Made by a program: the position numbers and the translations under genes
The notes under the pieces: generated by a model
Told to the model about the DNA's origin: nothing
Databases searched by the model: none
The model's input: the letters and a program-made list of their open reading frames with translations, nothing else
Source of the DNA: Clostridia bacterium
GTDB taxonomy: Bacteria; Bacillota; Clostridia; Oscillospirales; Acutalibacteraceae
Assembly (NCBI GenBank): GCA_017513525.1
Contig: JAFXFC010000023.1
Coordinates: 5,373 to 69,372, forward strand
Length of the DNA: 64,000 nucleotides
Reading direction: 5' to 3'
Part shown: positions 7,103 to 63,653 of the stretch, in pieces
How positions within the stretch are numbered: the stretch's first letter is position 1
Layout of the letters: every line of letters begins with the position of its first letter

Positions 7103-7121
7103 TGTTTACACTCCTTTCGGC

Positions 7122-7403
7122 TTATTTACCGTTATTTGATGTCTTGGATCCTGCATGACCTTTGAAGGTTCTTGTAGGAGCAAATTCACCTAATTTGTGA
7201 CCAACCATATCTTCTGTTACATAAACCGGAACGTGCTTACGTCCGTCATGAACGGCAAAGGTGTGACCAACAAAATCAGGGAAGATTGTGGAGCTGCGGC
7301 TCCAGGTCTTAAGAACGATCTTTTCGCCCTTTTCATTCATTTTGATGACTCTTTCGAGAAGCTTAGGCTGCACGAAAGGTCCTTTTTTAACACTTCTACC
7401 CAT
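7122..7403 (-). CDS. rpsS: 30S ribosomal protein S19 (uS19)
   Basis: 93 aa starting [11 protein letters not shown]. Confidence 0.97.
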
Positions 7404-7423
7404 TATTTATTGCTCCTTTCCGC

Positions 7424-41471: not shown

Positions 41472-43934
41472 TTACAGTACACTTACATCCCAACCGCTGA
41501 AATCTCCGCTGATGCAGGTGATATCGCATTTACCGTCTGTGAATGTAACCTTAGCTAAAATATCAGGCAGACAAAGAGGAAAGTTTATATTTTTATCAAT
41601 GGGATTAAAGGTAAGCTTTTTGTTTTCGAAATCTACTGACATACCCGATACAGCGAGCAGAGTTGTCCAGCTTGACATAGGGCGTGTATAGTGATGACCG
41701 CATTCCCAATGATCCCAGAAATAACCGAATCTTAACTGATTGCTGTGTATTGAACCAACTACGGTGTCGGATACTTCAGTGGCACCCACAGAAAGTGCAA
41801 GAGCCGAGAAGGCATAGCCTATGCCTGTCCAGACAGCAGTTGTCTGACAGTTTTTGTAGGTGTGTATGGTTGTCCTTCTGTTTTCCGGAACAGTAGCATT
41901 TAAAAGACCTTGCTCATTATCAAAATTGTAGTGGAAGATCAAATCAACTACCGCACGGACTCTTTCATCGGGAATATTGCCGCTAAGGCCTGTCATTCGC
42001 AAAAACCATTCTCCGTCAAGCTGATCGGTCATAAGAGATTCATCGGTTTCGTCATTGTTTCTCCAAAGATTATAATACTCGCCGTTCCAGAGCTTTTCTT
42101 CAAGGGATTTTTTGCCCTTTTCGAGGAGAGTGCTCCATTTGTCAAAGCAAGTCCTATCCCCTATTCTGTCGGCGATGATTGTTGCAGCCTTCAAAGAAGC
42201 TAACCAAAGGACAGAAATATATACGGGTGTGCCCGAGAAATTCCATGCATCGTAGGTGTTTCTTTTTGTATTGTAATCGGGCAAACCGTCTTTATCTGTA
42301 TCAAGCTTTTCTATGGCATCCATTGCCCGTTTGACATTATCCCACAGGGAGGTAAGATACTCTCTGTCGCCTGTAAAAAGATAATCGCGAAGCACCATTA
42401 AGACAAACTGTATACTGATATCAACACGGTCAAAGCCGTTATTGGTGCTTTTCATATCAGGTCTGAAGCAGTGATGCACTCTGCCGTCATCTCGCTGGTA
42501 TCGGGCACCCATTTTCATCTGTTTTTTCTGCAAATCGGGGAAAAGACTTATAAGGGAAAATGATGCATGATAGGTTATATCCGTGGTATGAAGTCCGCAA
42601 TAGCCGAGCCCCTCCCACAAGCCAAAATTTCCGTTTTTGAGATAAACGGAGTCCTTTATCAGCTGTGAAAGATTGGATGACCATGCATCAGGATAAATTG
42701 ACGGTAAATCTGTTGAATAAAGAAGCTCCGAAAAACCGACGGCAGACTTAAAAATACGGTCATAGCCTTCCTCAAGAGCTCTGTTTGCATCAAGGGAGCT
42801 TTTGTAAAGATTTTCGTAATAATGTCCGATTCTTTCACCGTCCGCGGCAAAGTGATTGGGGAAATACCATGTAAGAATGAAACGGATATTTTTCTTTTCG
42901 CCGGGGAAAAGCTTCACCTGTGAACAAAGAGCACAGGCACCGAAATCCTCTCCTCTTCTCTTATCCTCATCGCAACCGAAAAATTTGATTTTATCCTCCC
43001 TTGAAGCAGGAAAATCAGGTTTACAGAATCTGATACGGCTGAGTATGGAATCAGCAAAGGGGTACTTTTTATATTCCTCAAACAAGGTATCAAGCTCAGT
43101 GTCGCTGAGCGTTTCGGGATTTTCGGGGATGGCTTTGGGCTTTGTGCCGATCTCACCGTTGGGCAAAAAGCCCTTTTCTCTGAAGCCGAACAGAACGGAT
43201 TCCTGTGTTACACCTAAGTCCGAATCCGAACAAGCTATATATTCCCTCATAAAACGGTAGTAATCAGCCGTGATGTATGACTTTTCTCCGTCACCGTTTA
43301 CCGAAAAACAGAGATTACCGCAAGACGGTGAGTCAGAAAGCACTTCGGGCTCTATATGAACACTGACACCGTCGTCGGTCTTGTGAAGTGAGTTCTTGTT
43401 GCCCTCTTTTTGGTTTGCAAAATTCGGCTCAAGAGTACCTAAAAGGCTTATATTCAGTTCGCTGTCTGTGGGGTTTTCTACGGTAAAATCCATATAGAAG
43501 CCCGGTGTTGACGAAATGTCACTGTTATGCGGCACAAAGGGAGAAACCGCTTTAAGGCTGAGTTTACAAGACAATGCACTGTCAACAAAATTTAAGTCAC
43601 ACATAGGAAATTTGCCGTCAAATTCGATTTTTTCAACAGGCTTATTCCAGGAAAACATACGGTATGTAAAGTCATCAGCATCGGTCTTCATGCCAAGCTT
43701 TCGGACGATAGGCTTACCTTCAGCCTTCTTTTCTCTCACATAGAAAGAAAGTGCACCCGTGCTCCCCTCTCCGTCATCAGCCTTTTCCTCGAAGCAGACC
43801 TTGGTTATTCTCGGCTGGTTTGCAATAAGCCAGCTGTGGAACTCACCATCAGGAAAAAGCTCAACACTGCCGGCACCAATCCCGCCAAGAGCAATACCGC
43901 TTGAATGTTTTTTTGTTGTGGTAATTTTTGGCAT
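41472..43934 (-). CDS. GH116-family beta-glucosidase (GBA2-type glucosylceramidase-like)
   Basis: 820 aa. N-terminal GIALGGIGAGSVELFPDGEFHSWLIANQ and C-terminal DGLPDYNTKRNTYDAWNFSGTPVYISVLWLASL are characteristic of GH116. Confidence 0.85.
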   Translation of the reverse strand: MPKITTTKKHSSGIALGGIGAGSVELFPDGEFHSWLIANQPRITKVCFEEKADDGEGSTGALSFYVREKKAEGKPIVRKLGMKTDADDFTYRMFSWNKPVEKIEFDGKFPMCDLNFVDSALSCKLSLKAVSPFVPHNSDISSTPGFYMDFTVENPTDSELNISLLGTLEPNFANQKEGNKNSLHKTDDGVSVHIEPEVLSDSPSCGNLCFSVNGDGEKSYITADYYRFMREYIACSDSDLGVTQESVLFGFREKGFLPNGEIGTKPKAIPENPETLSDTELDTLFEEYKKYPFADSILSRIRFCKPDFPASREDKIKFFGCDEDKRRGEDFGACALCSQVKLFPGEKKNIRFILTWYFPNHFAADGERIGHYYENLYKSSLDANRALEEGYDRIFKSAVGFSELLYSTDLPSIYPDAWSSNLSQLIKDSVYLKNGNFGLWEGLGYCGLHTTDITYHASFSLISLFPDLQKKQMKMGARYQRDDGRVHHCFRPDMKSTNNGFDRVDISIQFVLMVLRDYLFTGDREYLTSLWDNVKRAMDAIEKLDTDKDGLPDYNTKRNTYDAWNFSGTPVYISVLWLASLKAATIIADRIGDRTCFDKWSTLLEKGKKSLEEKLWNGEYYNLWRNNDETDESLMTDQLDGEWFLRMTGLSGNIPDERVRAVVDLIFHYNFDNEQGLLNATVPENRRTTIHTYKNCQTTAVWTGIGYAFSALALSVGATEVSDTVVGSIHSNQLRFGYFWDHWECGHHYTRPMSSWTTLLAVSGMSVDFENKKLTFNPIDKNINFPLCLPDILAKVTFTDGKCDITCISGDFSGWDVSVL

Positions 43935-43997
43935 AACAAAACCTCCCCATCAGTTATGAATTAAGTATACTGTAAATTTCACAATAATTCAAGCGAC

Positions 43998-44053
43998 AAA
44001 AAAACAGACACATCATAGTGAAAAACTCCAAAATGATGTGTCTGACTTTTTTT
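43998..44053. terminator. Bidirectional terminator downstream of micro-ORF copy 1
   Basis: aaaaaaa CAGACACATCAT ...16-nt loop... ATGATGTGTCTG ac ttttttt. Confidence 0.75.
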
Positions 44054-44086
44054 AATGATTAAATCTGTGATTTCAAGAAAAACTGA

Positions 44087-44140
44087 TTACTTGCTTGCTT
44101 CTTCGATAGCAACTGCACAAGCAACTGTCATACCAACCAT
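44087..44140 (-). CDS. Conserved 17-aa micro-ORF, copy 1 (MVGMTVACAVAIEEASK)
   Basis: ATG...TAA with AAGG upstream. An in-frame TAA lies 4 codons upstream of the ATG, so this is not the tail of a longer ORF. Its peptide is identical to copy 2 despite 4 nucleotide differences. Confidence 0.35.
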   Translation of the reverse strand: MVGMTVACAVAIEEASK

Positions 44141-44298
44141 GGGGTTGTTACCTTAAAATATTACCTGTATTCAAGTGTATTTACCCTACTTTTTATGCCA
44201 AAAAACAGCACTTTTCATCGTCTTCTGTATCTTGGTGTATTTTTGTGCTGTAAAGTTTTGTAAAGTTTCATAGGGCGGATTAGTTTGTAAAGTCCGGA
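44087..44298 (-). repeat. Copy 1 of a roughly 210-bp repeat unit (TTTACAA-repeat promoter-like block plus 17-codon micro-ORF)
   Basis: Aligns with 45377-45585 in direct orientation. The conserved blocks are CTTTACAAA...TTTACAAAACTTTACA.CACAAAAATACACCAAGATACA and the micro-ORF. The central part has diverged. Confidence 0.8.
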
Positions 44299-44314
44299 AT
44301 TGAACAATATAGAA

Positions 44315-44602
44315 TCAATCAACAATCTCATACGAAAAAGAATTGAAATTATGTTCTTTGCGAAATTCTACAGTATCATCCAAAACCTCATGCATTAAGG
44401 CAAGCTGTTCAGTAAATTCTTTGGGCATTGTGTGCTCACCTTTTATAATAAGCTTATCAGCATCACATTCACTCCACATCATATCCCAAAATGCATTCCA
44501 ATTCCTTCCGGTATCTTCATCAAAACCAAAAGCATCTCTTATTCTTCTGTGAAGATCATCCCAGTATTTGCATCCGGTTAAATCTAATTCAATGATTTTC
44601 AT
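44315..44602 (-). CDS. Barstar-family ribonuclease inhibitor (immunity protein)
   Basis: MKIIELDLTGCKYWDDLHRRIRDAFGFDEDTGRNWNAFWDMMW matches the barstar pattern (...yyG.N.dAlwD...). AAGGAGG lies 6 nt upstream of the ATG at 44602; the track uses a TTG at 44608. It lies immediately downstream of the barnase-like gene. Confidence 0.8.
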   Translation of the reverse strand: MKIIELDLTGCKYWDDLHRRIRDAFGFDEDTGRNWNAFWDMMWSECDADKLIIKGEHTMPKEFTEQLALMHEVLDDTVEFRKEHNFNSFSYEIVD

Positions 44603-44613
44603 AAACAACCTCC

Positions 44614-45180
44614 TTAAACTATTTCATAGAAAGTTTCATAATGGTCATATGTAACAAAAATCAACCCATCGTTAGACCATACAATTCTTTGTTTATTCCG
44701 TTTTCCTTTTTTGTAATTAATATCAGCTTCATACCAAATTCTGCCGACTGCATCGGGTAAATGTTTATCTTTATTCTTATATATTTCTCCACCAATCATT
44801 TTCCCCGGAACAAAGTTTGATGGCCATTTACCTGATTTCCAACCTTTTTGTTCGGCATCTGTTTTACTGATATAATTGACAGGCAATTGGTTATTATAAA
44901 AAATTGACCAATCAGTCCCTGCAACACCGTCAACAGTTGCAGTACCTGCTGTAATTGTTTCCAAGGGCAAAATCAGACAACGGTCAAAAAAGTGGATGGG
45001 CGGTTTGGGCTTTTTTATATTACCTTTTTCCCAGACTTTACCGTGATTCGATTCACAGTCAAGGCATCGTTTTTCATCGGGAATGCTTTTCCAATATTTA
45101 TAATTTTTACTCGTGCCGAGCTGAGCCGCTAATTTTTCACCATTAGCAGTTGCCTCTAAAACAGCTTTAATTAAACTCAC
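44614..45180 (-). CDS. Toxin: SPP1-gp7/Mu-F domain C-terminal fragment fused to a barnase/RNase Sa-type ribonuclease
   Basis: 188 aa with a GTG start after AAGGAG. The N-terminal part WKSIPDEKRCLDCESNHGKVW...PPIHFFDRCLILP resembles the conserved end of the Phage_Mu_F domain. The C-terminal part GGEIYKNKDKHLPDAVGRIWYEADINYKKGKRNKQRIVWSNDGLIFVTYDHYETFYEI matches microbial guanyl-RNase (barnase family) motifs. Confidence 0.75.
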   Translation of the reverse strand: MSLIKAVLEATANGEKLAAQLGTSKNYKYWKSIPDEKRCLDCESNHGKVWEKGNIKKPKPPIHFFDRCLILPLETITAGTATVDGVAGTDWSIFYNNQLPVNYISKTDAEQKGWKSGKWPSNFVPGKMIGGEIYKNKDKHLPDAVGRIWYEADINYKKGKRNKQRIVWSNDGLIFVTYDHYETFYEIV

Positions 45181-45224
45181 TTTAATCTCCTTGAAAATGA
45201 ATTTTCCTTATGCATAAGAACTTC

Positions 45225-45272
45225 AGAACATTTGTTCGCTTTAATTATATCAATTTTAATTTACATTGTCAA
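45225..45272 (-). promoter_or_regulatory. Consensus sigma-A promoter with an overlapping LexA (Cheo) box, driving the toxin-immunity pair
   Basis: On the minus strand, TTGACA (45267-45272), a 17-nt spacer, then TATAAT (45244-45249). CGAACAAATGTTCT (45225-45238) follows, spanning the predicted start site. It contains a perfect GAAC-N4-GTTC palindrome. Confidence 0.7.
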
Positions 45273-45307
45273 GCCGAATTGTGTCGAGTATACATAAAAA
45301 CTTTTCG

Positions 45308-45342
45308 AAAAAAAATCCCCTGTCCGAATAAACGAACAGGAG
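45308..45342 (-). terminator. Rho-independent terminator downstream of micro-ORF copy 2
   Basis: On the minus strand, CCTGTTCG tttatt CGGACAGG gg followed by a U-run (a run of 8 A at 45308-45315 on the plus strand). Confidence 0.7.
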
Positions 45343-45376
45343 AAATTTACTTTATTATCCGTACAGAATTATATTC

Positions 45377-45430
45377 TTACTTGCTTGCTTCTTCAATAGC
45401 AACAGCACATGCAACAGTCATACCAACCAT
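45377..45430 (-). CDS. Conserved 17-aa micro-ORF, copy 2 (MVGMTVACAVAIEEASK)
   Basis: Same peptide as copy 1. The 4 differences (ACT/ACA, GCA/GCT, GCT/GCA, ATT/ATC) are all third-position synonymous. A GAGG RBS is present. Confidence 0.4.
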   Translation of the reverse strand: MVGMTVACAVAIEEASK

Positions 45431-45585
45431 GGGGTTGTACCTCAGAGCAACACCTGTATTTTGGCATATTTACCACGCCTTTTCTGCCCCTTTACGGCAC
45501 TTTTTATACTCTATTGTATCTTGGTGTATTTTTGTGTTGTAAAGTTTTGTAAAATTTTATGGGGCAGATTATTTTGTAAAGTTTT
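45377..45585 (-). repeat. Copy 2 of the roughly 210-bp repeat unit
   Basis: See copy 1. On the minus strand there is a promoter-like TTACAA-18-TACAAT, then a leader of about 90 nt, then GAGG 9 nt upstream of the micro-ORF ATG. Confidence 0.8.
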
Positions 45586-45634
45586 TTGATAATATAGCAA
45601 AATGCTCACAAAAGAAATTCAGAGTTATATATTA

Positions 45635-46456
45635 TTAAGTTTTAAAAATGATATCATACAGTTGATTTAGTGGATGATCATATGTACTTGCAAACAACCC
45701 TCCATAGGGACTGGATTTATTTTTAGTGTGCTTTTCATACCATGTATTTAATATTTGCGAATCAATAAGCGTGAAATCATTTATAGGAGTTCGATATGCA
45801 ATTTTTAAATAATCAGAGGATGTCTCATATAACGAATGGTTTAATGATCGTTTGGAACGATAAACAGACCAATTAACCTGCCTCAACAACTTAGCATTCA
45901 TAACTTCTTGATATATCCAAGGCGATAATGTATATTCAGATGTTTCATTCATAACATTCTTTATAGATGGAAAAGACTCTTTTGTGTTTAAGAAAAATAT
46001 CACTTCAGAATTATCCATTACCGAATGTATTGCAGTGGAAAGCATAGCGTGTACATGACTCGTAGTAAAGTTTCTTTTTTTGTAATTGTAAGTTTTTGTG
46101 TCTTCCTGATAACAGTATTTTTCATCCAATTGTTTTAACAATTCATCCGCACTACCCCATACCACTTCATCTAAAAACACATCTAAATCAAACTCTTTTT
46201 TCAACCATCCAGTTAAAGCAAAAGCTAAATCAGCATCATTGTGTGAGTGTGAGATAAAAATATCACTTTCAATATTTTTAAACCATGCATTAGATAATTT
46301 TTCGCCATCAATAACTTCATCTGACAGCATAAAATCGCCTAATTCTTCTTTTGCAAGTTTTTTTAATGTATCTTTTTGCTGTTTTCCGATATTTATATAC
46401 TCATCTACACATGAAAAATCTTTCAACCTGATTTGCAAATCAAAAGCGGTAAACAT
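45635..46456 (-). CDS. thsB: TIR-domain protein, ThsB-like
   Basis: 273 aa with SDIFISHSHNDADLAFALTGWLKKEF (TIR beta-A/alpha-A), LDVFLD, EVIFFLNT and SPWIYQEV (the W..E catalytic-Glu region). Confidence 0.7.
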   Translation of the reverse strand: MFTAFDLQIRLKDFSCVDEYINIGKQQKDTLKKLAKEELGDFMLSDEVIDGEKLSNAWFKNIESDIFISHSHNDADLAFALTGWLKKEFDLDVFLDEVVWGSADELLKQLDEKYCYQEDTKTYNYKKRNFTTSHVHAMLSTAIHSVMDNSEVIFFLNTKESFPSIKNVMNETSEYTLSPWIYQEVMNAKLLRQVNWSVYRSKRSLNHSLYETSSDYLKIAYRTPINDFTLIDSQILNTWYEKHTKNKSSPYGGLFASTYDHPLNQLYDIIFKT

Positions 46457-46476
46457 ATAACAGCCCCATCCTTTAT

Positions 46477-47346
46477 TTAATATTTTAGTATTGCAACATC
46501 TGCTTTCTTTGTTTCATGAACAATAATATGTATATTTCCATGGATTTTTTGTTTGTTAATTCTTAATAAAGAAACCATAAAATACAACATATCTTCAGTT
46601 GATCTTGTAGGACGAATAATATGGTCACCAAATACTGGACAATAAAGATCTATGCACTGTCCATGAGCATCGTAGTAATCTATAAGACTCTGCAATGCAA
46701 TAAAATAGTCAAATTCTGTGCTATTTGCTTTTAAATTACTATCAAATTCAGAAACTCCCCACAGATAAAAAATTATTCCATTGGTTTCATTGAGTTCAGC
46801 AATAGTGCCAGAAGAATAACGTTTTAAGTAGCCGCTTTTTTTATTCATAAAATCAATCTCTTTATATTCAGCATTACAATCGGAAAGACACTGTTCAATC
46901 TTCTGATGTAATTCCACTCGATCTTTTTCGGAAGAAATATAATTATTTAACCATTGACCATGTATGCTTTTCTCTGAAATTAGATTGTTTTCACAACTAA
47001 GATCAAAACATCTGTTTACTGGAATTACAATGATTTTTTTATCTTTTCTTCGATTATCAAATCCAAGCTCAATTATATCTCCATATTGAATAAAAATTTC
47101 TTTATCTGTATCTCCAAAGATTGATTTTTTATTTCGTATTAAAACTATTGATGCGGAAACAATAAAAGATAAGATTACTATGCCACTAAAGATTATTATT
47201 TTTAAGGTAACTTTTTGAATTCCAAGTTCATCCCACGAAAAAAAATCAAGCAATATACTGGCCAAAGCAGAAAGGGTACCCCATACCGACACAAAACATT
47301 TAAAAAGAACTTTACCGTTAATCTTTAGACGAGTTAAAAAATTCAT
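46477..47346 (-). CDS. thsA: Two-TM N-terminus plus a Macro-like effector domain, type II ThsA-like
   Basis: 289 aa with two N-terminal TM helices. IFIQYGDIIELGF...KIIVIPVNRCFD then resembles the GDI...(I/V)VxxxN start of Macro domains. It lies 20 nt upstream of the TIR gene. The Macro assignment is from motif memory only. Confidence 0.5.
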   Translation of the reverse strand: MNFLTRLKINGKVLFKCFVSVWGTLSALASILLDFFSWDELGIQKVTLKIIIFSGIVILSFIVSASIVLIRNKKSIFGDTDKEIFIQYGDIIELGFDNRRKDKKIIVIPVNRCFDLSCENNLISEKSIHGQWLNNYISSEKDRVELHQKIEQCLSDCNAEYKEIDFMNKKSGYLKRYSSGTIAELNETNGIIFYLWGVSEFDSNLKANSTEFDYFIALQSLIDYYDAHGQCIDLYCPVFGDHIIRPTRSTEDMLYFMVSLLRINKQKIHGNIHIIVHETKKADVAILKY

Positions 47347-47748
47347 AAAAAAACCTCACAATGACAATATTTCTAATATTATATTACAAAATATGGCAAA
47401 CAACAATATGTTTTATTGCAAATATATTATACTCGCTTATATTTATAAGACTCAGTATAGCAGTTGCCTTTATCACTAAGGTCATCTACACCTGTACTTT
47501 TTTATTAACAAAAATTGGAAGTTTTTAATTAAGAAGATGAATCGTTATTGTACCCATGACAATCTTCTGTCAAAGAAATATATTTTGTAGCAAAAATATA
47601 TAATTTTTTATATGTTTTCAATGATATTAAAAAATTCAGATTTTCGGTTATATATCCTTTCTATCTATCATTATATATATGAATCATTAAAGACGTACGG
47701 AGTTACATCTTTGACTGATTAAATATATATGAAAAGGAAGTAATAACA

Positions 47749-48738
47749 ATGGAAATTGAGAAACTCTTTGAAAATACCCGTGATGCTCTGATTATAGCTT
47801 CACAGTATGGTGAAACGAAAGATGTACTGAAGGTTTGTGTTCAGAAATGTAAAAGCGATCCCGATTATCTTTACAAGAGAACAACCTGCCTTTATGAATC
47901 GTTTGATTATGCTATTCTGAGAGTGGCGAAAGATATTAAATCCGCTGATTGCATCATCTTTGAGGATGAAATTACTGCGAACGAGTTGATGAAATGTTTT
48001 TCGCTTGATGCTAAAAAGGTGTATTTGTTTTTCGAAGATATTGTATCTGAGATTTTGCCTGCAGAAAAAATAGCCCTGTTAAAAGGAAACAAAACCGTTG
48101 ATGATGTTTATGGATTGATTTTTGATGAAATAACTTCGAGCGGCGATATCCCCGAGCTTTTTACAGAGGTTGAAAAATGCCGTAGGACTATCAATGCTCT
48201 GCTTCGATATCATAATCTTCACAGCAATGCTCTTAAGTTAAAGCATAAGCACAGCAGCTACATAGAATATATCAGAGAGTTGCTTAAAAATGATGATAAT
48301 GTTGCAGTGCTGTATTTTGTGAATAAAAGAGGAATAGACAGCCTTTCGGGGGCAAAGCCTGATTCAGATGGTCTTCCCGGAGAGCGATTCTTTGCAACAG
48401 ACTGCAAAAATAATATTTCATCAAAAGAGCTGATTTTGGATTTTCTTGAAAATATAAAAACGGTCATTATTTTTGATGAAAATGAAAAAGAAATAATGGA
48501 ATATCTGAAAGATATTTTTGAAGATAATCCATTTAACTTTGATGTAATCAATCTTTTTAAATTCGCAAATGAAATGTTTGTGAATGTACCGGATGGGCTT
48601 TCTGTGTTGAATTATTACCTTTTGTCTTTTGATGTGTTATATGGTTGTTTCTGGGACAAGTTTGACAGATTAAACGACTATCACACATTACTTCGCTGTA
48701 TGCTCGCACACTATGAAAACATAGCAAAAAAGCTATGA
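47749..48738 (+). CDS. Hypothetical protein, paralog A of an unrecognised family
   Basis: 329 aa with an AGGAAG RBS. It aligns end to end with the 49070-50035 product. No recognisable motif. Confidence 0.8.
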   Translation: MEIEKLFENTRDALIIASQYGETKDVLKVCVQKCKSDPDYLYKRTTCLYESFDYAILRVAKDIKSADCIIFEDEITANELMKCFSLDAKKVYLFFEDIVSEILPAEKIALLKGNKTVDDVYGLIFDEITSSGDIPELFTEVEKCRRTINALLRYHNLHSNALKLKHKHSSYIEYIRELLKNDDNVAVLYFVNKRGIDSLSGAKPDSDGLPGERFFATDCKNNISSKELILDFLENIKTVIIFDENEKEIMEYLKDIFEDNPFNFDVINLFKFANEMFVNVPDGLSVLNYYLLSFDVLYGCFWDKFDRLNDYHTLLRCMLAHYENIAKKL

Positions 48739-48840
48739 TAAAAAACCTGTATGCTTACATAAACGGAGTTCCACCATAGCCATTTTGTCAGTTTTATCCT
48801 TTGTTTTAATTAGTCATAACATATTTATCCTTTGTTTTGT

Positions 48841-48882
48841 GATCCCTGAAGTTTGTGTCGGCTTCAGGGATCGCTTTTTTTT
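48841..48882 (+). terminator. Rho-independent terminator of paralog A
   Basis: GATCCCTGAAG tttgtgtcgg CTTCAGGGATC gc tttttttt. Confidence 0.8.
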
Positions 48883-49069
48883 GCAAATAATGCACAAGAG
48901 TGCGCCGTTTTCACGACGCACTCTTGCTTTGCTGATGGTTATAAAGGAGTTTTTTTGGAGAAATTATGTCAACACGTTAAGGGGCAAATGTTATGTAGAA
49001 AAACATACTTAAAAGATCCATCAGCTTTATCTCCAAGCATGTTACGAGCGAAATTTAAATATGGGTTAA

Positions 49070-50035
49070 TTATTCAGGAAGGTTATCTCTGACTTCTTTG
49101 TATTCTTCAATGAGGTTTTCTAAAATCAGAAGCAAATCCTTGTGCGTTTCGCCTTCAACACAAAAATCAAGCCAGCTTGACTGTAAAAATCTGCGGAAAA
49201 GTAATGATAAATCCGTCGGCGGAAGCTTAAAAATTTGAGAAGAAATATCTTTCAGATCAACTGTTATAAAATTAAATTGAGCATTGTGTTTTTTGTAAAT
49301 AGATTCTAAATATTGCGAAGCTTCATCACCATAACAAACGATGTATTTTATGTTATTGAACACATTCTGTATTCTGTTAAAATAATCATCTGAGGAGTTA
49401 TAATGATATCTACACTCAAAAATGCGGTTTTCTGTTGCTGTAAAGTTAGAGCAAATGTAGAAATTCTCATCATAAGTATTTTCAACAGTAGTAATTGAAG
49501 CAAACATTTCCGGGGATGCGTTTTGCTCAATAATATTATCAAGAATCTGATTTCTTTGTTTTATCGGAAAAACGTCTTTTGTAATGTAACGGAAAAACAG
49601 CAATTCGTTCGTCGCTGCAAGCAGTTGTCGTTGTGTGTCCCGGATATCTTCTTCACCTGCCGTCAGCAAAAAGAAAAGAGCGAATACATCCCGGGTAGTT
49701 GTTAAGTTGTTCTCTTCGAGAGCATATTTAGGAAGTATCTCTTTTGCTAAATCAATAATTGAAATAACGGTTTTCTTCGTTAAGTTAAATTGTTTGATCA
49801 GAATGTCTTTGGTTTCATCTGAATCGGTAACAATGTACTTGTTTTGTTTTAGCATCTTTTTTGCTTTACGGGGATTTTCATTAAGAAACTCCATGTGACT
49901 GTACTTATCCTGAAAGAAAGCATTATCGTTTATTGCTACTTCAATGGAAATAAGTTGTTTTTCTTTGTCTTCGGGATTGTTTATAACGACGAATGCCGCC
50001 TTTCTGCAGTTGATTAATTGTGATATTGATTCCAT
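49070..50035 (-). CDS. Hypothetical protein, paralog B of the same unrecognised family
   Basis: 321 aa with an AAAGGA RBS. It shares blocks with paralog A, for example ILIKQFNLTKKTVISIIDLAKEILP against ELMKCFSLDAKKVYLFFEDIVSEILP. Another is NIKYIVCYGDEASQYLESIY..FNF against NIKTVIIFDENEKEIMEYLKDIF..FNF. Confidence 0.8.
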   Translation of the reverse strand: MESISQLINCRKAAFVVINNPEDKEKQLISIEVAINDNAFFQDKYSHMEFLNENPRKAKKMLKQNKYIVTDSDETKDILIKQFNLTKKTVISIIDLAKEILPKYALEENNLTTTRDVFALFFLLTAGEEDIRDTQRQLLAATNELLFFRYITKDVFPIKQRNQILDNIIEQNASPEMFASITTVENTYDENFYICSNFTATENRIFECRYHYNSSDDYFNRIQNVFNNIKYIVCYGDEASQYLESIYKKHNAQFNFITVDLKDISSQIFKLPPTDLSLLFRRFLQSSWLDFCVEGETHKDLLLILENLIEEYKEVRDNLPE

Positions 50036-50286
50036 ATGTAGTCCTTTCTGATATACTGATTTTACTTGGAGAATTGATTTTCTCCATCCGTCAGTGTTTC
50101 ATTAAGAGTATGACAGATAGGAACATATAACAATTGAACAAATATGTAAAAATACGCTTTTTGTTGTATTTTTTTATTGTTTTTGCACTTAAAATCAACA
50201 CTTTTGCAGTCGAGCATTCAAAGTTATTGACAATTCACGGAATCGGTATTAAAATTAAATAAATTATAGAAAGGCAGGTGGACAAA

Positions 50287-50343
50287 ATGACAATGACTAT
50301 TATTTTACGAAATCGAAGTGCCGTTTTGTCCGTTTGCGATTGA
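50287..50343 (+). CDS. Candidate 18-aa leader peptide (MTMTIILRNRSAVLSVCD)
   Basis: ATG at 50287, preceded by AGGCAGGTGGAcaaa, with a stop at 50341-50343. Its codons 9-12 form one arm of an anti-terminator helix. Confidence 0.35.
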   Translation: MTMTIILRNRSAVLSVCD

Positions 50344-50406
50344 TGTAATACAATCTTTCTGAATTAGCAAGGCATCTTCGATTTTAGGAGGTGCCTTAAA
50401 TTTTTT
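50312..50406 (+). promoter_or_regulatory. Candidate transcription attenuator (mutually exclusive helices plus a U-tract) upstream of the GNAT operon
   Basis: Helix 1 pairs ATCGAAGTGCC (50312-50322) with GGCATCTTCGAT (50371-50382), giving 11 bp with a 1-nt bulge. Helix 2 pairs AAGGCAT (50369-50375) with GTGCCTT (50391-50397) and is followed by AAATTTTTT. The two helices share 50371-50375. Confidence 0.4.
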
Positions 50407-50422
50407 AGAAAGAGGTTGTTTT

Positions 50423-51421
50423 ATGTATTATGTAAAACCATTAGTGGTAGAAGATGTTCATTATGTAGCATCAATAATGTCTGAAACAAGTAACATTGCA
50501 GCTCTCCATTCAACATATCATTCGTTGTCAGAATGGAAATGTATTTTTGATAAAAATGCTTGTGATGCTGATGAAGAAAACTTTTTGATTTGTGTTGATA
50601 ACAATATCTGTGCTTGGTTGAAGCTAAACGGCTTGCTAAACGCCGATACAGCTTGGATATCAATGCTTGTTGTTGCAGATAAGTATAAGCATCAAGGTGT
50701 CGGAAAATTTGCTGTTGAATATGCTTTTGAATATCTGCATTCTAAAGGATTTAATCAAATCGGAGTTCAGACAACAAAAGATAATCTTGCAGCAATAAAT
50801 CTGTATAAGAAATATGGTTTCAATATTGTGGAACTTAAAAAGTTTAAAACAGAAGACGTCACAAAGACAAAAGCTTATCTTATGATGAAAACTCTGGAAC
50901 CAAAGAAATATTCACTTGTGATTCCTGATGAAACTTATAAAGAAGCATATATTCAAATGATGAACAAATGGGAGTCTGTTGAAGATAATATTCAGCCTGA
51001 ATTATTAAGACGGTACAGTAAAAGTTTAGGGGCAAATGTATCCTATTCAAAGTGGCTCGAATGGTGTGAGGATGACAGAACAACAGGTTCTATGTTGTCA
51101 ACAGGTGTTCCTTGTACTCTATACTTTTTTATTGATGATACAAGTGAAATATTAGGTGCAATTGAAATCAATCAGAAGAATACCCACAGAGGTCATCTGC
51201 ATGCAGGAATAGTACCTTGGCACAGAGGCAAGGGGCTTGGCACAAAAATACTTGAATCAGCCTTGGAAATTTGCAGAAATATGGGTATGACAAGTGTTGA
51301 TATTGTTCCGTATAAGACCAACAAATCAGCTATTAAAACTATACTCAAAAACGGCGGAATTTTAATAGATGAATTCTATGAAGACGAAAAATGGTCGCAA
51401 AGATACAGAGTATCATTATAA
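50423..51421 (+). CDS. Tandem double-GNAT N-acetyltransferase
   Basis: 332 aa. It has two acetyl-CoA-binding-like motifs: VVADKYKHQGVGKFAVEYAFEYL and VPWHRGKGLGTKILESALEICRNMG. Confidence 0.8.
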   Translation: MYYVKPLVVEDVHYVASIMSETSNIAALHSTYHSLSEWKCIFDKNACDADEENFLICVDNNICAWLKLNGLLNADTAWISMLVVADKYKHQGVGKFAVEYAFEYLHSKGFNQIGVQTTKDNLAAINLYKKYGFNIVELKKFKTEDVTKTKAYLMMKTLEPKKYSLVIPDETYKEAYIQMMNKWESVEDNIQPELLRRYSKSLGANVSYSKWLEWCEDDRTTGSMLSTGVPCTLYFFIDDTSEILGAIEINQKNTHRGHLHAGIVPWHRGKGLGTKILESALEICRNMGMTSVDIVPYKTNKSAIKTILKNGGILIDEFYEDEKWSQRYRVSL

Positions 51422-51432
51422 AGAGGTGTAAA

Positions 51433-52305
51433 ATGACAAAAACAATAAATGTATCAATAACAAACATACCTTCCATATCGGCAATTTATTATGCACTGTT
51501 ACAGTCGGGGTATGATTACTACGCTATCGGAAGAACACAAGAGCAAATCGAAGCAGTTAAATCATTTTACAAGCCTGAATTATCTTCCTGTTTCTTTTCA
51601 CAAGCAAAGCAAAACACTTGCGAAGCATATTCATATTGGCCGAGAGCAGCTTTATTGGAAACTGCCGTGTTTTATATGGATGCAGATTTAGCTCAGTTTT
51701 CGGATTTTGAATCTTATAAAGCATTTGTAATGACTGCAAGTAATTTGCAAGATATAGAAAGAGATGAAAATTTCTGGTCTTGGATTGCTGATTTCCCTAA
51801 GGAATTGAACAAGATTATAAATAGCGAGTCTTTTAATAGATATTTAATTTGGGAAAACACTTGGATAGAGGAACAAAACAAAGCGAATGCAGTGAATTTA
51901 AAAACTTTTCAGGAAATCATTAAAACTTGTATAAGCCATTACAATGCAAAAATTAGTAATATTAAAATAACATTATCTCCCATTAAATGTGCATATTCAA
52001 GTGATTATCACTTTGTAGACGGACAGTTTATTTTTAGTTCAGGTCAATTTAGTATAGAATCTTTAATACATGAGTTTTTGCATCAGATAGTTCATCCGCA
52101 TGTGTGTAAAAATCAAAATATAATTTTAGTGAACAAAAAAGTTTTTGATTGTATAGATTCTTCATATTACCTTTCCAATAGTGAAAACGGAAAACTTAAT
52201 GCCTTTGAGGAATATTTAGTAAAGGCATTAACAAGAGATTTTATAGACAAAACGCCACCGAATGACTTAGACAAATACATCGTATCTTTATTAAACGAGG
52301 TGTGA
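51433..52305 (+). CDS. Hypothetical protein with an HExxH motif (possible zinc-dependent hydrolase)
   Basis: 290 aa from the ATG at 51433, with RBS AAGAGGTG; the track starts at 51391. HEFLHQIVHPH is present. No family recognised. Confidence 0.6.
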   Translation: MTKTINVSITNIPSISAIYYALLQSGYDYYAIGRTQEQIEAVKSFYKPELSSCFFSQAKQNTCEAYSYWPRAALLETAVFYMDADLAQFSDFESYKAFVMTASNLQDIERDENFWSWIADFPKELNKIINSESFNRYLIWENTWIEEQNKANAVNLKTFQEIIKTCISHYNAKISNIKITLSPIKCAYSSDYHFVDGQFIFSSGQFSIESLIHEFLHQIVHPHVCKNQNIILVNKKVFDCIDSSYYLSNSENGKLNAFEEYLVKALTRDFIDKTPPNDLDKYIVSLLNEV

Positions 52306-52307
52306 AA

Positions 52308-53195
52308 ATGGCAAAACGAGTTGTAGTTGTTCCGTATAACGAACAATGGAAAACAGATTTTGAGATAATCAAGCAACATCTTTTTCCGGCAGTAAAAGAT
52401 TTAATAATCAGCATTGAACATATCGGCAGCACTTCTGTTGAAGGTCTTTCTGCGAAACCTATTATTGACATTGATATTGTTATCAAAGACTATTCTGTAT
52501 TTGATACAGTAGTTGAAAGATTAGCAATTCTCGGCTACATACACGAAGGAAATCTCGGCATAAAAGACAGAGAAGCTTTTAATTATAAAGGCAATATGGA
52601 TTTACCGAAGCATCATTTATATGTTTGTCCGCAATTTTCAGAAGAACTTCAAAGACATATTGCTTTCAGAGATTATCTGAAAAATAATTCCGAAGCCGTA
52701 CTGAAATACAGCAAGGTCAAAGAAGAAGGTGCAAAGTTATTCCCCGACAGCATAGATGATTATATTGCTTATAAATCACCTTTTATTGAAGAGATTTACA
52801 TGGAATGTAAATTAGAAGGATTTATCAAACAGCGGGATATAAAAGTAAGAAATGATGAACATTTGAGGGTTATCAAGTGTTTCTATCTATATCTCCGAAG
52901 CGTTTCAGGCGATGAACGATTACTGCCATCAGTTCTTGAAAAATTACTTGGCATTGATTTGACAAATATTTCAGTTGTTACGGCTTGTTTCAATGGTGTC
53001 AACGATGATAGCAAACCTCCTTGTGACAATGTTGATCTTTATATTAAGTTAAATAACGGCGTAAAAGTTTTTGTTTACGGCAGAAAACAGAGGCTTCCTA
53101 ATGTTCCGAAAGAAAATGAATATGTGATATTTTTTATTTCAGATAATTTGTCAAGTAATATTACTTATATAGAAAGTAATCAAATCATTGTGTGA
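52308..53195 (+). CDS. GrpB-family (nucleotidyltransferase-fold) protein with an extra C-terminal domain of about 120 aa
   Basis: VVVVPYNEQWKTDFEIIKQHL...IEHIGSTSVEGLSAKPIIDIDIV is the GrpB/UPF0157 signature. The ATG at 52308 follows GAGGTG; the track uses a GTG at 52302. Confidence 0.75.
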   Translation: MAKRVVVVPYNEQWKTDFEIIKQHLFPAVKDLIISIEHIGSTSVEGLSAKPIIDIDIVIKDYSVFDTVVERLAILGYIHEGNLGIKDREAFNYKGNMDLPKHHLYVCPQFSEELQRHIAFRDYLKNNSEAVLKYSKVKEEGAKLFPDSIDDYIAYKSPFIEEIYMECKLEGFIKQRDIKVRNDEHLRVIKCFYLYLRSVSGDERLLPSVLEKLLGIDLTNISVVTACFNGVNDDSKPPCDNVDLYIKLNNGVKVFVYGRKQRLPNVPKENEYVIFFISDNLSSNITYIESNQIIV

Positions 53196-53201
53196 CGTCA
53201 G

Positions 53202-53765
53202 GTGAAATGCACTAAAATTTGCACAACGCCTGTTTCGTTACCTAAAGGCTATAGCTTTAAGATGTATGATGTGGGTGATGAAAAATATTGGGCAAAACTT
53301 GAATATGAAATCGGTGATTTTTCATCCGTTGAAGAAGCTGAAATGTATTTCAAAACAAATTATTGCAATCAAATTGATGAACTGAAAAAACGTTGTGTGT
53401 TTGTTGCTGATGCTTATGGCGATGTTGTAGGTTCGTGTATCGCTTGGCACGATTTGAAAGGCAATGATACAGTCGCATCACTTCATTGGCTCGTTGTTTC
53501 CCCTGAACATCAAGGTAAACATATAGGTTTGACTCTTTGTCAAAAGGTAATGGATATATTCAAAGAGCGTGGTGAAACTCCCGTATATATTCATACGCAA
53601 CCGTGGAGTTATAAAGCAATCCTGCTCTATATTAAACTCGGCTTTAAAATTCAGAAAACTGAAACTTTTTCGCATTATGAGAATCAGTACAAAAAAGCCA
53701 TAAAAACTTTAGAAAATCTGCTTTCCGAAAGTCAGTTTAATCAAATTATTTTAAGTTCGGAGTAA
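53202..53765 (+). CDS. GNAT-family N-acetyltransferase
   Basis: 187 aa with LVVSPEHQGKHIGLTLCQKVMDIF. It has a GTG start, and the start position is uncertain. Confidence 0.75.
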   Translation: MKCTKICTTPVSLPKGYSFKMYDVGDEKYWAKLEYEIGDFSSVEEAEMYFKTNYCNQIDELKKRCVFVADAYGDVVGSCIAWHDLKGNDTVASLHWLVVSPEHQGKHIGLTLCQKVMDIFKERGETPVYIHTQPWSYKAILLYIKLGFKIQKTETFSHYENQYKKAIKTLENLLSESQFNQIILSSE

Positions 53766-53784
53766 AACATTCGGAGATACGAAA

Positions 53785-54246
53785 ATGCACATTGTAAGAA
53801 AAATAAAAACAACAGATTTGCTACTTTTAACTCAACTTTTCAATTACAAAGATGTCAATGACATGATTGCCGAAAACACAAGAGATATTGAAGCCGGTAT
53901 TATTGATATTTTCGCTTTGTTTGATGGGGCTAAAATTATCGGTGAATTAAGAGTAAAATACATTAGTGATGATAACCGCTTTACTGAAAAATGTAAACGA
54001 GCATATCTTTATGCTTTTCGTGTTCATCAGAAATATCAAGGCAAGGGATTAGGTAGTTTCTTGCTTGAAAATGTGTTGCTAATTCTTGCAGAAAATGGTT
54101 ATAGAGAATTTACCGTCGGTGTTGAAGATGATAATTTAAGAGCTCGTTATATGTACGAAAAGAACGGCTTTAAAGAACCTATTGCAAGAATAAAAGAAAG
54201 TTATCAGGGTGACAGTTATGAATATGATTTGTTGCTGAAGGCTTAA
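53785..54246 (+). CDS. GNAT-family N-acetyltransferase
   Basis: 153 aa with FRVHQKYQGKGLGSFLLENVL and YEKNGF. Confidence 0.8.
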   Translation: MHIVRKIKTTDLLLLTQLFNYKDVNDMIAENTRDIEAGIIDIFALFDGAKIIGELRVKYISDDNRFTEKCKRAYLYAFRVHQKYQGKGLGSFLLENVLLILAENGYREFTVGVEDDNLRARYMYEKNGFKEPIARIKESYQGDSYEYDLLLKA

Positions 54247-54276
54247 TTTTTTATTCTGACATAAGGAGCGACAATT

Positions 54277-55065: not shown

Positions 55066-55073
55066 GGTAAATT

Positions 55074-55905: not shown

Positions 55906-57576
55906 TTACATATCAGTCAGTTCGTTTTTATATCTGTAAAAAGTGGCGGTTGATATCTGAAATCTGTCTGTCACTTCCTTATAATCGGCTTCAGGGTTTT
56001 CTCTCATATATTTCATACAAGCTTGCTTTTTGCGAGCAGCTTTGTTATCGGCTCTGTTTGTGCGGTAATAATCCCTTTCATATTTTCTTCGTCTTGCTTC
56101 GCGTTCTTCTCTGCTGAAACTGCAAAAGGAATTCATTATGTCTTCTTTTGTAAAACCGATAGCATCAGCGATTGTTTCTAATTTGTATGGGTAGAAATTA
56201 CCGCTGAAGTTTGCATATATCGTGATGCACATTTCATCATAGTAATTACTTGTTTCGTCACAATACTGAGTGCAGTATTCAATAAAATCTTCAGGCTCTT
56301 CAAAGATGTGTCTGCCGATGTTTGAAAGTATGTGAAAAAACAGATTCCTTTTATGAAGAAGCAGGTGTTTGTTTGCGGAGTGGTGAACCAAAAAATTGTG
56401 GATGTCAACTAAAACATTCCAGTATGAAAAGCCTTGTGTTCTGTAATCATTCCTGTAACGAAGCTTACTGAAATCAAGGTCATAATCCTTGTCATAAGAA
56501 AAATCGGCTACAAGTACATCTTTATCTGGTTCGTTAAGTGTTTCGGAGGAAGGCTTTTTATCGCAGGATTTGTTTACCGCAGGCTTTGTGTTTTTAGGCT
56601 TTTTCGGTTTTCTTTTAAGATATTCTTTGTTTTCAATCTGCTCCATAGTAAAGCCTGCATCAAGAAGCTTTTGTATGTTAGTCTTTCTTCGTTTTTTATT
56701 AGAGGCCTCTTTGCTTTTACTGAAGTATTCGTCAATTTCTTCCTGTGGTTTCAGGTATGGTAAAAATCTTTCAAGACTGTGATCGTTTCCGTTGTCATAG
56801 AGAAAAAGACGGGTGCGAATAGGAGTAGAGTCTTTCAGATTAAAACTGGTCGGGCACCTGTATTTCCTCGCACCATTCCTCACGGCGACATCGCCGGAAA
56901 GCAAAACTATCAAGCTGTCATAAATGCGTTGTCTGAGATCAAAGTTTTCTTTAGTGCATTCCTCTATGTAATACGTAATGTGAGCACCGTGTCCGCTTAA
57001 GGTAATTGCATCCGGATAAAGAGCCGGAGGAAGGCAGTATTTCTTTATGAAGAAATTTCTTACTGTTTCCTTATCTGCTGTATGTGGATCAAAATCAAAC
57101 AGTACCGTATCAATGTCAACAATTATTGAACGGAAAGAAATTGCATTTCTGTCTGCTGTCCAATAACGGAACGGTGTTGCATGGTAATAGAGGGTGATTT
57201 CATCGCAATTTGCAAGTCTTGACAAATAGTGAATATGTTTCTTTCTGCCGTAATGGAACAGATTAACAAGATTGCCGTGCTTGTCCGCTGCGAAGATAAA
57301 AAAGCGATGCTTTTCATCGTCTGACAGAATGTTATTGAAATATGTAACAACATCCTCATCAGTTTCCCCGGTGTAGTCTTCAACATACTTTTCCAGATTG
57401 TGCTTTAACATAGCCTGTCGGCATATGCGAACAAGCATTCTGATTCGCTTGTCTGTGTTTTTGTCCCCTGTCTGAATTTCCTTTAACGGAGCATTGTTGT
57501 AAATGTAGTTTTCGAAACCATAATCTAAAATTTCTTCAACGATTTCAGGGTCAACTAAATGATTTATTATTTTCAT
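55906..57576 (-). CDS. Archaeo-eukaryotic-primase (Prim-Pol)-type replication protein with a C-terminal HTH
   Basis: About 556 aa. Contains IIVDIDT (DxD), LSGHGAHITYY (sGxGxH) and a C-terminal ISTATFYRYKNEL HTH. The start is probably the ATG at 57576, after AAAGGA; the track starts at 57585. Confidence 0.65.
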   Translation of the reverse strand: MKIINHLVDPEIVEEILDYGFENYIYNNAPLKEIQTGDKNTDKRIRMLVRICRQAMLKHNLEKYVEDYTGETDEDVVTYFNNILSDDEKHRFFIFAADKHGNLVNLFHYGRKKHIHYLSRLANCDEITLYYHATPFRYWTADRNAISFRSIIVDIDTVLFDFDPHTADKETVRNFFIKKYCLPPALYPDAITLSGHGAHITYYIEECTKENFDLRQRIYDSLIVLLSGDVAVRNGARKYRCPTSFNLKDSTPIRTRLFLYDNGNDHSLERFLPYLKPQEEIDEYFSKSKEASNKKRRKTNIQKLLDAGFTMEQIENKEYLKRKPKKPKNTKPAVNKSCDKKPSSETLNEPDKDVLVADFSYDKDYDLDFSKLRYRNDYRTQGFSYWNVLVDIHNFLVHHSANKHLLLHKRNLFFHILSNIGRHIFEEPEDFIEYCTQYCDETSNYYDEMCITIYANFSGNFYPYKLETIADAIGFTKEDIMNSFCSFSREEREARRRKYERDYYRTNRADNKAARKKQACMKYMRENPEADYKEVTDRFQISTATFYRYKNELTDM

Positions 57577-57779
57577 AAAAATCATCCTTTCTATATTATT
57601 TTTTAGTCAAAAAGCTTTGACATAAATAATATGAAAGAAGCAATATGAAAATAGGTGCAAATTTTTATCAAAAACCGCTTTTTTTGAGAAAAAAATTGAA
57701 AAAAGTTTAAAAAATAGCGAAAATATATGCGTATGAATAAAATAATAGCAGCAAGTCATTTCTCTTGCCGCTATTTTTG

Positions 57780-59867: not shown

Positions 59868-59936
59868 AATCTCCGTATTCAACAGAGGATTACATATGAC
59901 GCATTCTGAAGAGTTCGGTTTTTATGAGGTATATTT

Positions 59937-62761: not shown

Positions 62762-62924
62762 GTATATGTATCATTTTTATCTTGCATATTATAAGCAAGG
62801 AAAACTTCGTTGGACAGCAGTAAAGAAATTGCTTGTTTTGCTACCCTCGGAGAGCCCGGACCTTTCGGAAGAAAGGTGTAAAGGGCTATACCTTTTTGAA
62901 AAAAGAAAAAAGAAGGTGATTAAA

Positions 62925-63653
62925 ATGGCACATATTGAAAAGTTCAAAAGAAAGGATGTGGCGAGAGTATGTAATCATTTTGAAAGAAAGTTTTCAGGAG
63001 ATGGCATTCCCGATAACAGAAATATTGATCCGACAAGGACACATCTTAACTACAATCTTGCAGAGCATAATGAAGCTCAGATGGAGTTTATAAACAGAAG
63101 GTGTGCGGAGGTAAGATGCAATCCCAGAGCAGATTTGAATATCCTTGCTTCCTGCTGTCTGTTTCTCCCGAAAGATGTTCCGCCTGAAGATGAACGGAGA
63201 TTTTTTGAAAGTGCATACAGATTTTTATCTGACAGATATGAAAAGAACAATATTGTTTCTGCATGGGTTCACAAAGATGAGGGAATTAAGACGTCTGAAG
63301 GAGTGCTGATTAATAGTCCTCATATCCATTTTGCCTTTATTCCAGTTGCCAATCGTGACACCGATAAGGAGTGCATTTCGGCGAAATTAGTGATTAACAG
63401 ATGTGATTTGCAAACGTTACACACGGATATGGAAACGGCAATAAGCAATGATTTTGGACGAAAAATAAGCATATTAACAGGTGCTCTGAAAGACCGAAAG
63501 CTGATGTCTATGCCTGAATATCGCAAATATAAACAGTTGCAAAGAGATATTGTAGAAATGGAAAGACGAAAAACAGAATTACAGGATGAAATCTTTGACA
63601 TAGAAGGAACTGATTTCCGTCCACTGTTTAATACAAACGAAATGATTTTGTAA
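62925..63653 (+). CDS. MobV-family (Pre/Mob) relaxase, short form (242 aa)
   Basis: MAHIEKFKRKDVARVCNHFERK is a Mob_Pre N-terminus. WVHKDEG...SPHIHFAFIPV is the HxDE...PHxH motif. AGAAGGTGA lies upstream of the ATG at 62925; the track begins at 62766. Confidence 0.75.
   Translation: MAHIEKFKRKDVARVCNHFERKFSGDGIPDNRNIDPTRTHLNYNLAEHNEAQMEFINRRCAEVRCNPRADLNILASCCLFLPKDVPPEDERRFFESAYRFLSDRYEKNNIVSAWVHKDEGIKTSEGVLINSPHIHFAFIPVANRDTDKECISAKLVINRCDLQTLHTDMETAISNDFGRKISILTGALKDRKLMSMPEYRKYKQLQRDIVEMERRKTELQDEIFDIEGTDFRPLFNTNEMIL

Follow-up and report, generated by a model that had tools for sequence, protein, structure and literature searches.

Must a pair of genes that lies among defence genes be a defence system itself? 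The question is raised by a 64,000-nucleotide stretch from a Clostridia bacterium of the Acutalibacteraceae (assembly GCA_017513525.1, contig JAFXFC010000023.1, positions 5,373 to 69,372 of the forward strand; hereafter the window), in which two convergent genes, A and B, lie between a type II Thoeris system and the gene of a 559-amino-acid (aa) replication-like protein, Rep. An earlier note on this DNA had put them forward as an undescribed defence module. Part of that proposal stands, as the two are divergent paralogs of an unrecognised family amid defence genes; the rest does not, since the family behaves as backbone, is linked to Rep and stays in place while the defence genes around it are swapped. 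This pattern looks like that of a core gene flanking a hotspot, not like that of defence cargo. We propose, with a probability of roughly 0.45, that the paralogs A and B represent a gene from the backbone of an integrative mobilisable element (IME), and that this gene anchors a defence-gene hotspot and would serve the element's own life cycle by binding. The features of the pair are as follows.

47749..48738, + strand: paralog A, an A-type member; open reading frame (ORF) of 329 aa, isoelectric point (pI) 4.9
49070..50035, - strand: paralog B, a B-type member; ORF of 321 aa, downstream of Rep, which has the same strand
48839..48882, + strand: intrinsic terminator of A; stem-loop at 48839-48874 with a 15-bp stem, then a run of eight T (T8)
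48894..48927, - strand: hairpin downstream of B, with a poor U-tract
47629..50152, no strand: conserved A/B pair unit, from blastn of the loci against the window

The family gene stays with Rep while its neighbours change

Long contexts of family members come from about six independent loci, all of them in gut metagenomes. In every context that reaches far enough upstream, the member is found downstream of a Rep homolog and on the same strand, at a distance of 1.4-6 kb in the window, L005, L011, L013 and L017. Across copies of the element, no gene other than Rep co-occurs with the family. Indeed, L005, L011 and L013 all have in common only Rep (89-92% aa identity) and the member (83-88%), and in these loci the two genes have similar synonymous divergence (dS) and similar ratios of nonsynonymous to synonymous divergence (dN/dS).

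The convergent arrangement is confined to the window, L001/L002 and L003, that is, to one closely related lineage, in which the copies of the other loci are 88-92% (A) and 74-79% (B) identical to those of the window. All other members are single: those of the C-type (L005-L013 and L021-L024), P0014 (L017) and the A-type P0012 (L015), the last lying beside a tyrosine integrase. An obligate two-gene module is rejected because most relatives are single, and the convergent pair, found in one lineage only, does not hold up as the functional module that the earlier note had seen in it. The association of relatives with defence genes, which it had named as a point to check, was seen, as the members always adjoin defence-type genes elsewhere too.

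What differs is the slot that separates the member from the end of the element. It holds A and Thoeris in the window and in L001, a JukB-like gene in L003, a HaeIII restriction-modification (R-M) system with a HEC-07/HicA-like gene in L005, ApeA-HEPN / PDC-S58 in L011, an unknown 208-aa gene in L013 and an AAA_13 ATPase in L021; a PDC-S06 ATPase and two unknown genes flank the pair of L003. When the window is compared with L001, dS is lowest for ThsA (0.05) and increases through ThsB (0.15), A (0.32) and B (0.68) to GH116 (1.8); therefore the Thoeris cassette was exchanged recently, and A and B are older residents. The gradient indicates that cassette exchange may be anchored on these older genes. 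The cassette junctions have no repeats other than those of the attachment (att) sites. The family gene forms the inner boundary of a terminal variable slot in which defence cassettes are exchanged, and its conserved sequence, together with the att flank, probably supplies the homology for this exchange.

Several observations on individual slots stand beside this pattern. The JukB-like gene of L003 (4778-5398) encodes 206 aa with a weak match in the N-terminus (E 1e-6) and lies between the terminator of A and the hairpin of B, at about 48889-48895 of the window; thus, the A/B intergenic region can itself take up a cassette. At 6889-8044, L003 also carries two adjacent genes of 132 and 242 aa, divergent from A, at the position that ThsA/ThsB hold in the window. 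Neither has a PADLOC or PHROG match, and the two are a candidate for an uncharacterised two-gene cassette in the same hotspot. In L021 (1735-5648), the C-type member is followed by the AAA_13 ATPase and then by a class II aminoacyl-tRNA synthetase gene (Pfam tRNA-synt_2), a context that suggests another insertion site for the element family. The 206-aa gene of L003 and the 208-aa gene of L013 were considered as a recurring partner and set aside, as they are not homologous.

Gene A and gene B are separate units

A and B are each monocistronic, and each has a promoter region and a terminator of its own. Their ORFs are as the earlier note had read them, in coordinates, in length and in the gap of 331 bp across which they face each other. 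The ribosome-binding site that it had assigned to each gene was also found, of the AAGGA type, upstream of both start codons, and its distinction between a strong terminator of A (stem and T8) and a mere hairpin with a poor U-tract behind B was reproduced. A is transcribed divergently from ThsA.

The A/B pair unit is the DNA that the window has in common with L003, at 88-94% identity by blastn, and it is contained within the block common to the window and L001/L002. About 115-120 bp of the region upstream of either gene belongs to the unit. Some 110-120 bp upstream of the genes, at 47629 and at 50142-50152, the common DNA breaks off sharply, and beyond it the flanks differ from locus to locus. 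Both genes are under purifying selection, with a dN/dS of 0.15-0.19 for A and 0.22-0.29 for B.

A and B are ancient paralogs of a rare family

A and B are true, anciently diverged paralogs at about 20% identity, which agrees with the high divergence noted earlier. The full-length similarity that had been claimed for them is not significant by pairwise BLASTP alone, where it is marginal (E=0.087, 22% identity, 24% gaps), but it is found by profile methods. Comparing the small A-type and B-type families with hhalign gave a probability of 88% (E=2.9e-6, 218 columns). A hidden Markov model (HMM) made from A-type sequences only scores the B of the window at 36.4 bits, and one made from B-type sequences only scores its A at 47.3 bits, against 9 bits for the best of 2000 shuffled decoys. 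The four sequence blocks previously listed as shared align in register (alignments A3 and A4), intermediates that bridge A and B were recovered in the exhaustive search, and both proteins have the same predicted fold. Paralogy is settled by the decisive profile tests, the bridging homologs and the common fold; from BLASTP alone the claim would have been unsafe.

The family is very small. An indexed search of 5.8 billion sequences returned two relatives of A and five of B, and an exhaustive HMM search of 1.84 billion cluster representatives returned only 13 clusters, whose full-length members are all of 321-333 aa. Four deep subfamilies can be told apart, A-type, B-type, C-type and P0014, with 14-25% identity between them. 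Every member is acidic (pI 4.6-5.5, net charge -7 to -24), and the family product is a soluble, acidic protein of about 325 aa.

No library names it. A and B have no match in Pfam, NCBIfam, PHROG or PADLOC (in PADLOC 2.0, 0 families at E<=1), all 17 members lack a match in Pfam, exonuclease families included, and the family profile has none in a PDB sequence search. The profile of the B family found nothing in GTDB genomes or IMG/VR, and that of the C-type nothing in JGI metagenomes. By tblastn, A, B and Rep have no match among PLSDB plasmids, and B and Rep have none among INPHARED phages. The impression of an unrecognised family was thus correct, and library and motif scans agree that A and B are without a P-loop, transmembrane segment, helix-turn-helix (HTH) or known domain.

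Predicted structure of the family

From an alignment of 17 sequences, AlphaFold2 (AF2) modelled B with a predicted local distance difference test (pLDDT) score of 84.6 and a predicted TM-score (pTM) of 0.82; for A the values are 71 and 0.71. Both models consist of two successive beta-beta-beta-alpha-beta-alpha-beta-alpha units (residues 12-100 and 178-268 of B), with a long helix between the two domains and a long C-terminal helix after domain 2. The order of the RNase H-like fold (beta1-beta2-beta3-alphaA-beta4-alphaB-beta5-alphaC, a mixed five-stranded sheet) occurs twice per model. On these models, A and B are predicted to be tandem RNase H-like domains in the topology of the ASKHA superfamily, in agreement with the alpha/beta fold that had been guessed from the sequence.

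The structural search that the earlier note had recommended yielded the same fold for both proteins and only weak Foldseek matches, all within the RNase H-like superfamily (best E 7.7e-4 in PDB and 6e-6 in BFVD). Among the PDB matches are the ASKHA proteins levoglucosan kinase, BT_3980, YeaZ/TsaB and Ppx, together with retroviral integrase cores, the RNase H domain of reverse transcriptase, NurA, RuvX, the C-terminal part of UvrC (UvrC-C), terminase nuclease and Hermes transposase; those in BFVD are retroviral Pol, YprB-like proteins and DnaQ-like exonuclease domains. Query-normalised TM-scores are at most 0.35 and the best target-normalised one is 0.45. No known structure in PDB or BFVD shares the whole architecture by Foldseek. 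Domains 1 and 2 have a weak in-register similarity to each other (hhalign local, 72%, E 3e-5), which is consistent with an old internal duplication.

The catalytic residues of such folds appear to be missing. No acidic residue is conserved family-wide on beta1 of either domain, and the beta1 position expected to hold the catalytic residue is N, D or E even among close B orthologs. Domain 1 conserves E/D73 after beta4, D95 after beta5, D116 and N143 (B numbering), domain 2 conserves none of the canonical catalytic positions, and Y312 is invariant across the family. The RNase H-type set of carboxylates on beta1, at the end of beta4 and in the helix after beta5 is thus incomplete in the family. 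Regular-expression and conservation scans of all subfamilies found no P-loop and no phosphate-1 (DxG..), phosphate-2 or adenosine (GGx) motif of the ASKHA proteins, and the family has neither the DxE[TS] on beta1 nor the conserved H....D of DEDD enzymes. The superposition on ASKHA structures stays far below a TM-score of 0.5, at 0.15-0.21 to levoglucosan kinase, BT_3980 and YeaZ. An active DEDD exonuclease and a ParM-like or ASKHA ATPase were both rejected on motifs. The protein is predicted to be catalytically inactive because Exo I, the H/Y-x4-D motif and the domain-2 motifs are absent; we infer from the models a non-catalytic pseudo-enzyme of the RNase H-like fold class.

A putative integrative mobilisable element

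From 44 kb to its end, the window has a GC content of 0.30-0.35, down from about 0.40-0.47, and the following features lie around A and B in this part.

44087..44293, no strand: outer att-containing copy, adjoining the chromosomal GH116 gene; 57-bp core at 44097-44153
44315-44608, - strand: barstar, the immunity gene, after the barnase gene
44614-45180, - strand: barnase-type RNase with a weak Phage_Mu_F-like (MuF) N-terminal region
45377..45582, no strand: inner att-containing copy of the 208-bp sequence; probably where the element with Thoeris, A, B and Rep ends
45635..47346, - strand: ThsB (TIR) and ThsA (Macro), type II Thoeris; PADLOC 5e-69 (ThsA) and 1.5e-74 (ThsB)
50423-55796, + strand: cargo block with several GNATs (one a double GNAT), a putative methyltransferase (MTase) and several unknowns
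55906..57585, - strand: Rep-like protein, 559 aa; DxD and SGHGxH motifs, C-terminal HTH
57780-58598: HTH-methyltransferase, from the library scan
59292-60473: two ORFs, of which 59937-60473 is homologous to genes in L011/L013
60725-62705, + strand: AAA_21 ATPase and RloB/OLD-TOPRIM-like protein, an AbiL/PARIS-like pair
62766..63653, + strand: Mob_Pre relaxase, 74% identical to the L013 copy

From its tyrosine integrase, Mob_Pre relaxase and primase-polymerase-like Rep, the island appears to be an IME. The whole element is seen in L013, an Acutalibacteraceae metagenome-assembled genome that was the sole match in 185,579 species genomes. Its order is a 332-aa target gene, tyrosine integrase, Mob_Pre, MTase with MjaI R-M, Rep, NUDIX and AraC cargo, the family member, an unknown gene and GH116. 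A 208-bp sequence adjoins GH116 in the window (44087-44293), L001, L011 and L013, and the 57-bp core of this sequence is found again in L013, next to the integrase and at the 3' end of the 332-aa ORF. In L013, the 57-bp direct repeats at 2549-2605 and within 17692-17899 enclose everything from the integrase through the member. We take these repeats as the attL and attR of an element of about 15 kb, which seems to insert into the 3' end of the 332-aa gene beside GH116 in Acutalibacteraceae. An Rfam scan of 43900-50500 gave noise only, and the repeat of about 208 bp is not a known RNA.

A and B of the window are on the element side of the inner att copy (45377-45582), and the opposite end of the element lies beyond the window. 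This second 208-bp copy, a direct repeat of the outer one, separates the barnase/barstar genes from the rest; therefore Thoeris, A, B and Rep belong to the inner element. The barnase/barstar genes are a polymorphic-toxin-like toxin/immunity pair and seem to be a mini-cassette that was accreted separately at the same att site. All neighbours that the earlier note had named, i.e., ThsA-Macro with ThsB-TIR, barnase/barstar and AAA_21 with RloB, were found.

Rep itself has no identity in Pfam (only a weak HTH_7 match), NCBIfam, PHROGs or PDB, and its profile has no match in IMG/VR or JGI metagenomes. Its DxD and SGHGxH motifs are invariant and are kept even in the homolog of L017, which is only 23% identical; between element lineages the identity is 60-64%. 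From these motifs we take Rep to be a replication protein of the primase-polymerase type, an assignment of our own that no library confirms, and it is probably an undescribed Rep of the element.

The region between B and Rep seems to change as well. In place of its cargo, L011 and L013 have NUDIX/HD/AraC genes, L005 a leucine-rich repeat (LRR) gene and L001 a gene for a 1443-aa Metallophos protein; this makes it a second variable region, which is not defence-like. In the window, we presume the 240-aa ORF at 55074-55796 to be a methyltransferase and the two ORFs at 59292-60473 to be of the HD type, in each case from their sequences. The AAA_21 and RloB pair lies between these two putative HD-type ORFs and the Mob_Pre relaxase. 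The 178-aa product of 59937-60473 (+ strand) is 92% identical to its copies in L011/L013, where the Reps are only 60-63% identical to the Rep of the window, which indicates a probable recent exchange of cargo between diverged elements.

Possible roles of the family protein

On the proposal that A and B belong to the backbone of the element, the protein would most likely bind and not catalyse, acting as a homo- or heterodimeric scaffold or adaptor. Its most likely role would be in replication or maintenance of the excised circle together with Rep, or in establishment, and it would not be a stand-alone anti-phage effector. If this is true, the gene pair is no new immune system but the landmark of an undescribed IME family of uncultured gut Clostridia, and it pinpoints a slot between the member and attR where defence cassettes are exchanged, with at least two unannotated candidates in it. 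With the protein, the RNase H-like superfamily also gains a new architecture of two domains that is apparently non-catalytic.

Some observations speak against the backbone proposal. The family gene is separated from Rep by variable cargo and forms no operon with it. Between element lineages, the family is only 15-29% identical where Rep is 60-64% identical, and such divergence is seen more typically in arms-race or specificity proteins than in accessories of replication. All known contexts are defence-rich, and a defence role could thus be argued from guilt by association. The partly conserved E/D73, D95 and D116 (B numbering) could form an unconventional active site. The about six loci are a small sample, and the molecular activity of the family and its interaction with Rep are putative.

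In other explanations, the protein takes part in conflict. It is conceivable, albeit doubtful, that the family is a new pseudo-nuclease that acts as a defence or counter-defence factor of the mobile element and is kept in the backbone, whatever cassettes adjoin it, because it would protect the element or its host; as a decoy, for instance, it might sense or sequester a nuclease of phage or host or a nucleotide signal, with A and B as two specificities. We regard as unlikely a novel anti-phage defence protein, either a single-gene system or an A and B sensor/partner pair, that is stably carried by the element family. Contexts packed with defence genes, own promoters and terminators, fast long-term divergence and the presence of two paralogs in one lineage would all fit it, but neither an effector-type domain, a transmembrane segment or a catalytic motif nor a PADLOC match was found, the gene is kept and tracks Rep while the true defence cassettes around it turn over, and with most members single the pair is no obligate module. 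Distinctly unlikely, to our minds, is an anti-defence or establishment protein, for instance one that, as a decoy or inhibitor, neutralises a nuclease or restriction system of a new host on entry. This would suit a backbone gene of a transferable element whose product is acidic (net charge -7 to -24), whose non-catalytic nuclease-like fold could mimic or sequester a partner, which combines quick divergence between lineages with purifying selection in the short term, and whose duplication could broaden specificity; however, the protein resembles no known anti-defence protein, its gene lies about 13 kb from the relaxase gene and not obviously in a leading region, and its acidity is moderate in comparison with what is generally known of DNA mimics. 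A defence or anti-defence factor, if true, would represent a new mechanistic class without a recognisable effector domain.

Enzymatic explanations receive very little of our credence. The size of about 320 aa, the tandem topology, the ASKHA proteins that lead the full-length Foldseek alignments (levoglucosan kinase, BT_3980 and YeaZ/TsaB) and the location on a replicating mobile element would be compatible with an ASKHA ATPase, actin-like (ParM/Alp-type) or other, which segregates the excised element or works as an ATP-dependent enzyme, but the phosphate-1, phosphate-2 and adenosine motifs are absent from every subfamily, the TM-scores are low, and no conserved small adaptor gene adjoins the family across loci. 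Equally improbable is that an active, atypical RNase H-fold nuclease or recombinase itself mediates the capture or exchange of cassettes at the hotspot. Its position directly at the variable slot, the domain-level matches to integrase cores, Hermes transposase, UvrC-C and terminase nuclease, and the acidic residues conserved after beta4 and beta5 of domain 1 would speak for such an enzyme; against it are the missing beta1 carboxylate in all subfamilies (N/D/E at the equivalent position among close B orthologs), the full degeneration of domain 2, the acidity of the protein and the cassette junctions, which carry only the att repeats.

Comparison with known systems

Among known proteins, the ASKHA pseudo-enzymes TsaB/YeaZ come closest, being the best full-length Foldseek group for B and having, like A and B, tandem RNase H-like domains. 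TsaB is also without nucleotide-binding motifs, like the family, which suggests a partner-binding role. The likeness is limited, however, as the TM-score is just 0.15-0.2 with no detectable sequence similarity, the family proteins are about 100 residues longer, with the long inter-domain and C-terminal helices, and they are encoded on a mobile element, not as housekeeping proteins. DEDD (DnaQ-like) and YprB-type domains provide the fold matches in BFVD, namely the exonuclease domain of CcrBL9 (target-normalised TM-score 0.45) and YprB-like proteins. By eye, the acidic residues after beta4 and beta5 of domain 1, with a D in the next helix, are reminiscent of Exo II/III, whereas the D-x-E of Exo I on beta1 and the H/Y-x4-D are missing, and domain 2 is without any motif. 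ParM/Alp systems come with a small adaptor gene and centromere repeats; no such gene is conserved near A/B across loci, and no repeats lie near A or B.

Type II Thoeris directly adjoins A/B in the window and L001/L002, and a tie to it had been suggested from that position. A and B have no similarity to ThsA/ThsB (no PADLOC match), and the family occurs without Thoeris in L003, L005-L013, L015, L017 and L021, including the full pair in L003. The dS of Thoeris, which is much below that of A or B, points to a separate history. A role as Thoeris accessory genes was rejected because the pair occurs without Thoeris and the dS values are discordant.

The closest parallel in arrangement is found in defence hotspots, of which SXT and P4 are examples in integrative elements. 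In the core genes of such hotspots (the SXT integrative conjugative element, P2/P4 and pipolins), a conserved gene likewise borders a slot with swapped defence systems. A core gene that flanks a defence hotspot is a known arrangement because IMEs and pipolins have been described in this way: PMC10201445 presents integrated mobile elements, IMEs included, as established carriers of defence systems, and PMC11551731 describes pipolins as replicative integrative elements that are platforms for exchangeable defence genes. What differs from SXT, P2/P4 and pipolins is that the element family, its Rep and its flanking gene are undescribed, that the flanking gene is duplicated, and that in L003 a cassette lies between the two copies. 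The novelty of the locus thus lies in the element family itself and its unannotated Rep, in the duplication of the flanking gene in the lineage of the window, and in a very rare and unnamed protein family with a predicted doubled RNase H-like architecture that seems to be inactive, without catalytic residues.

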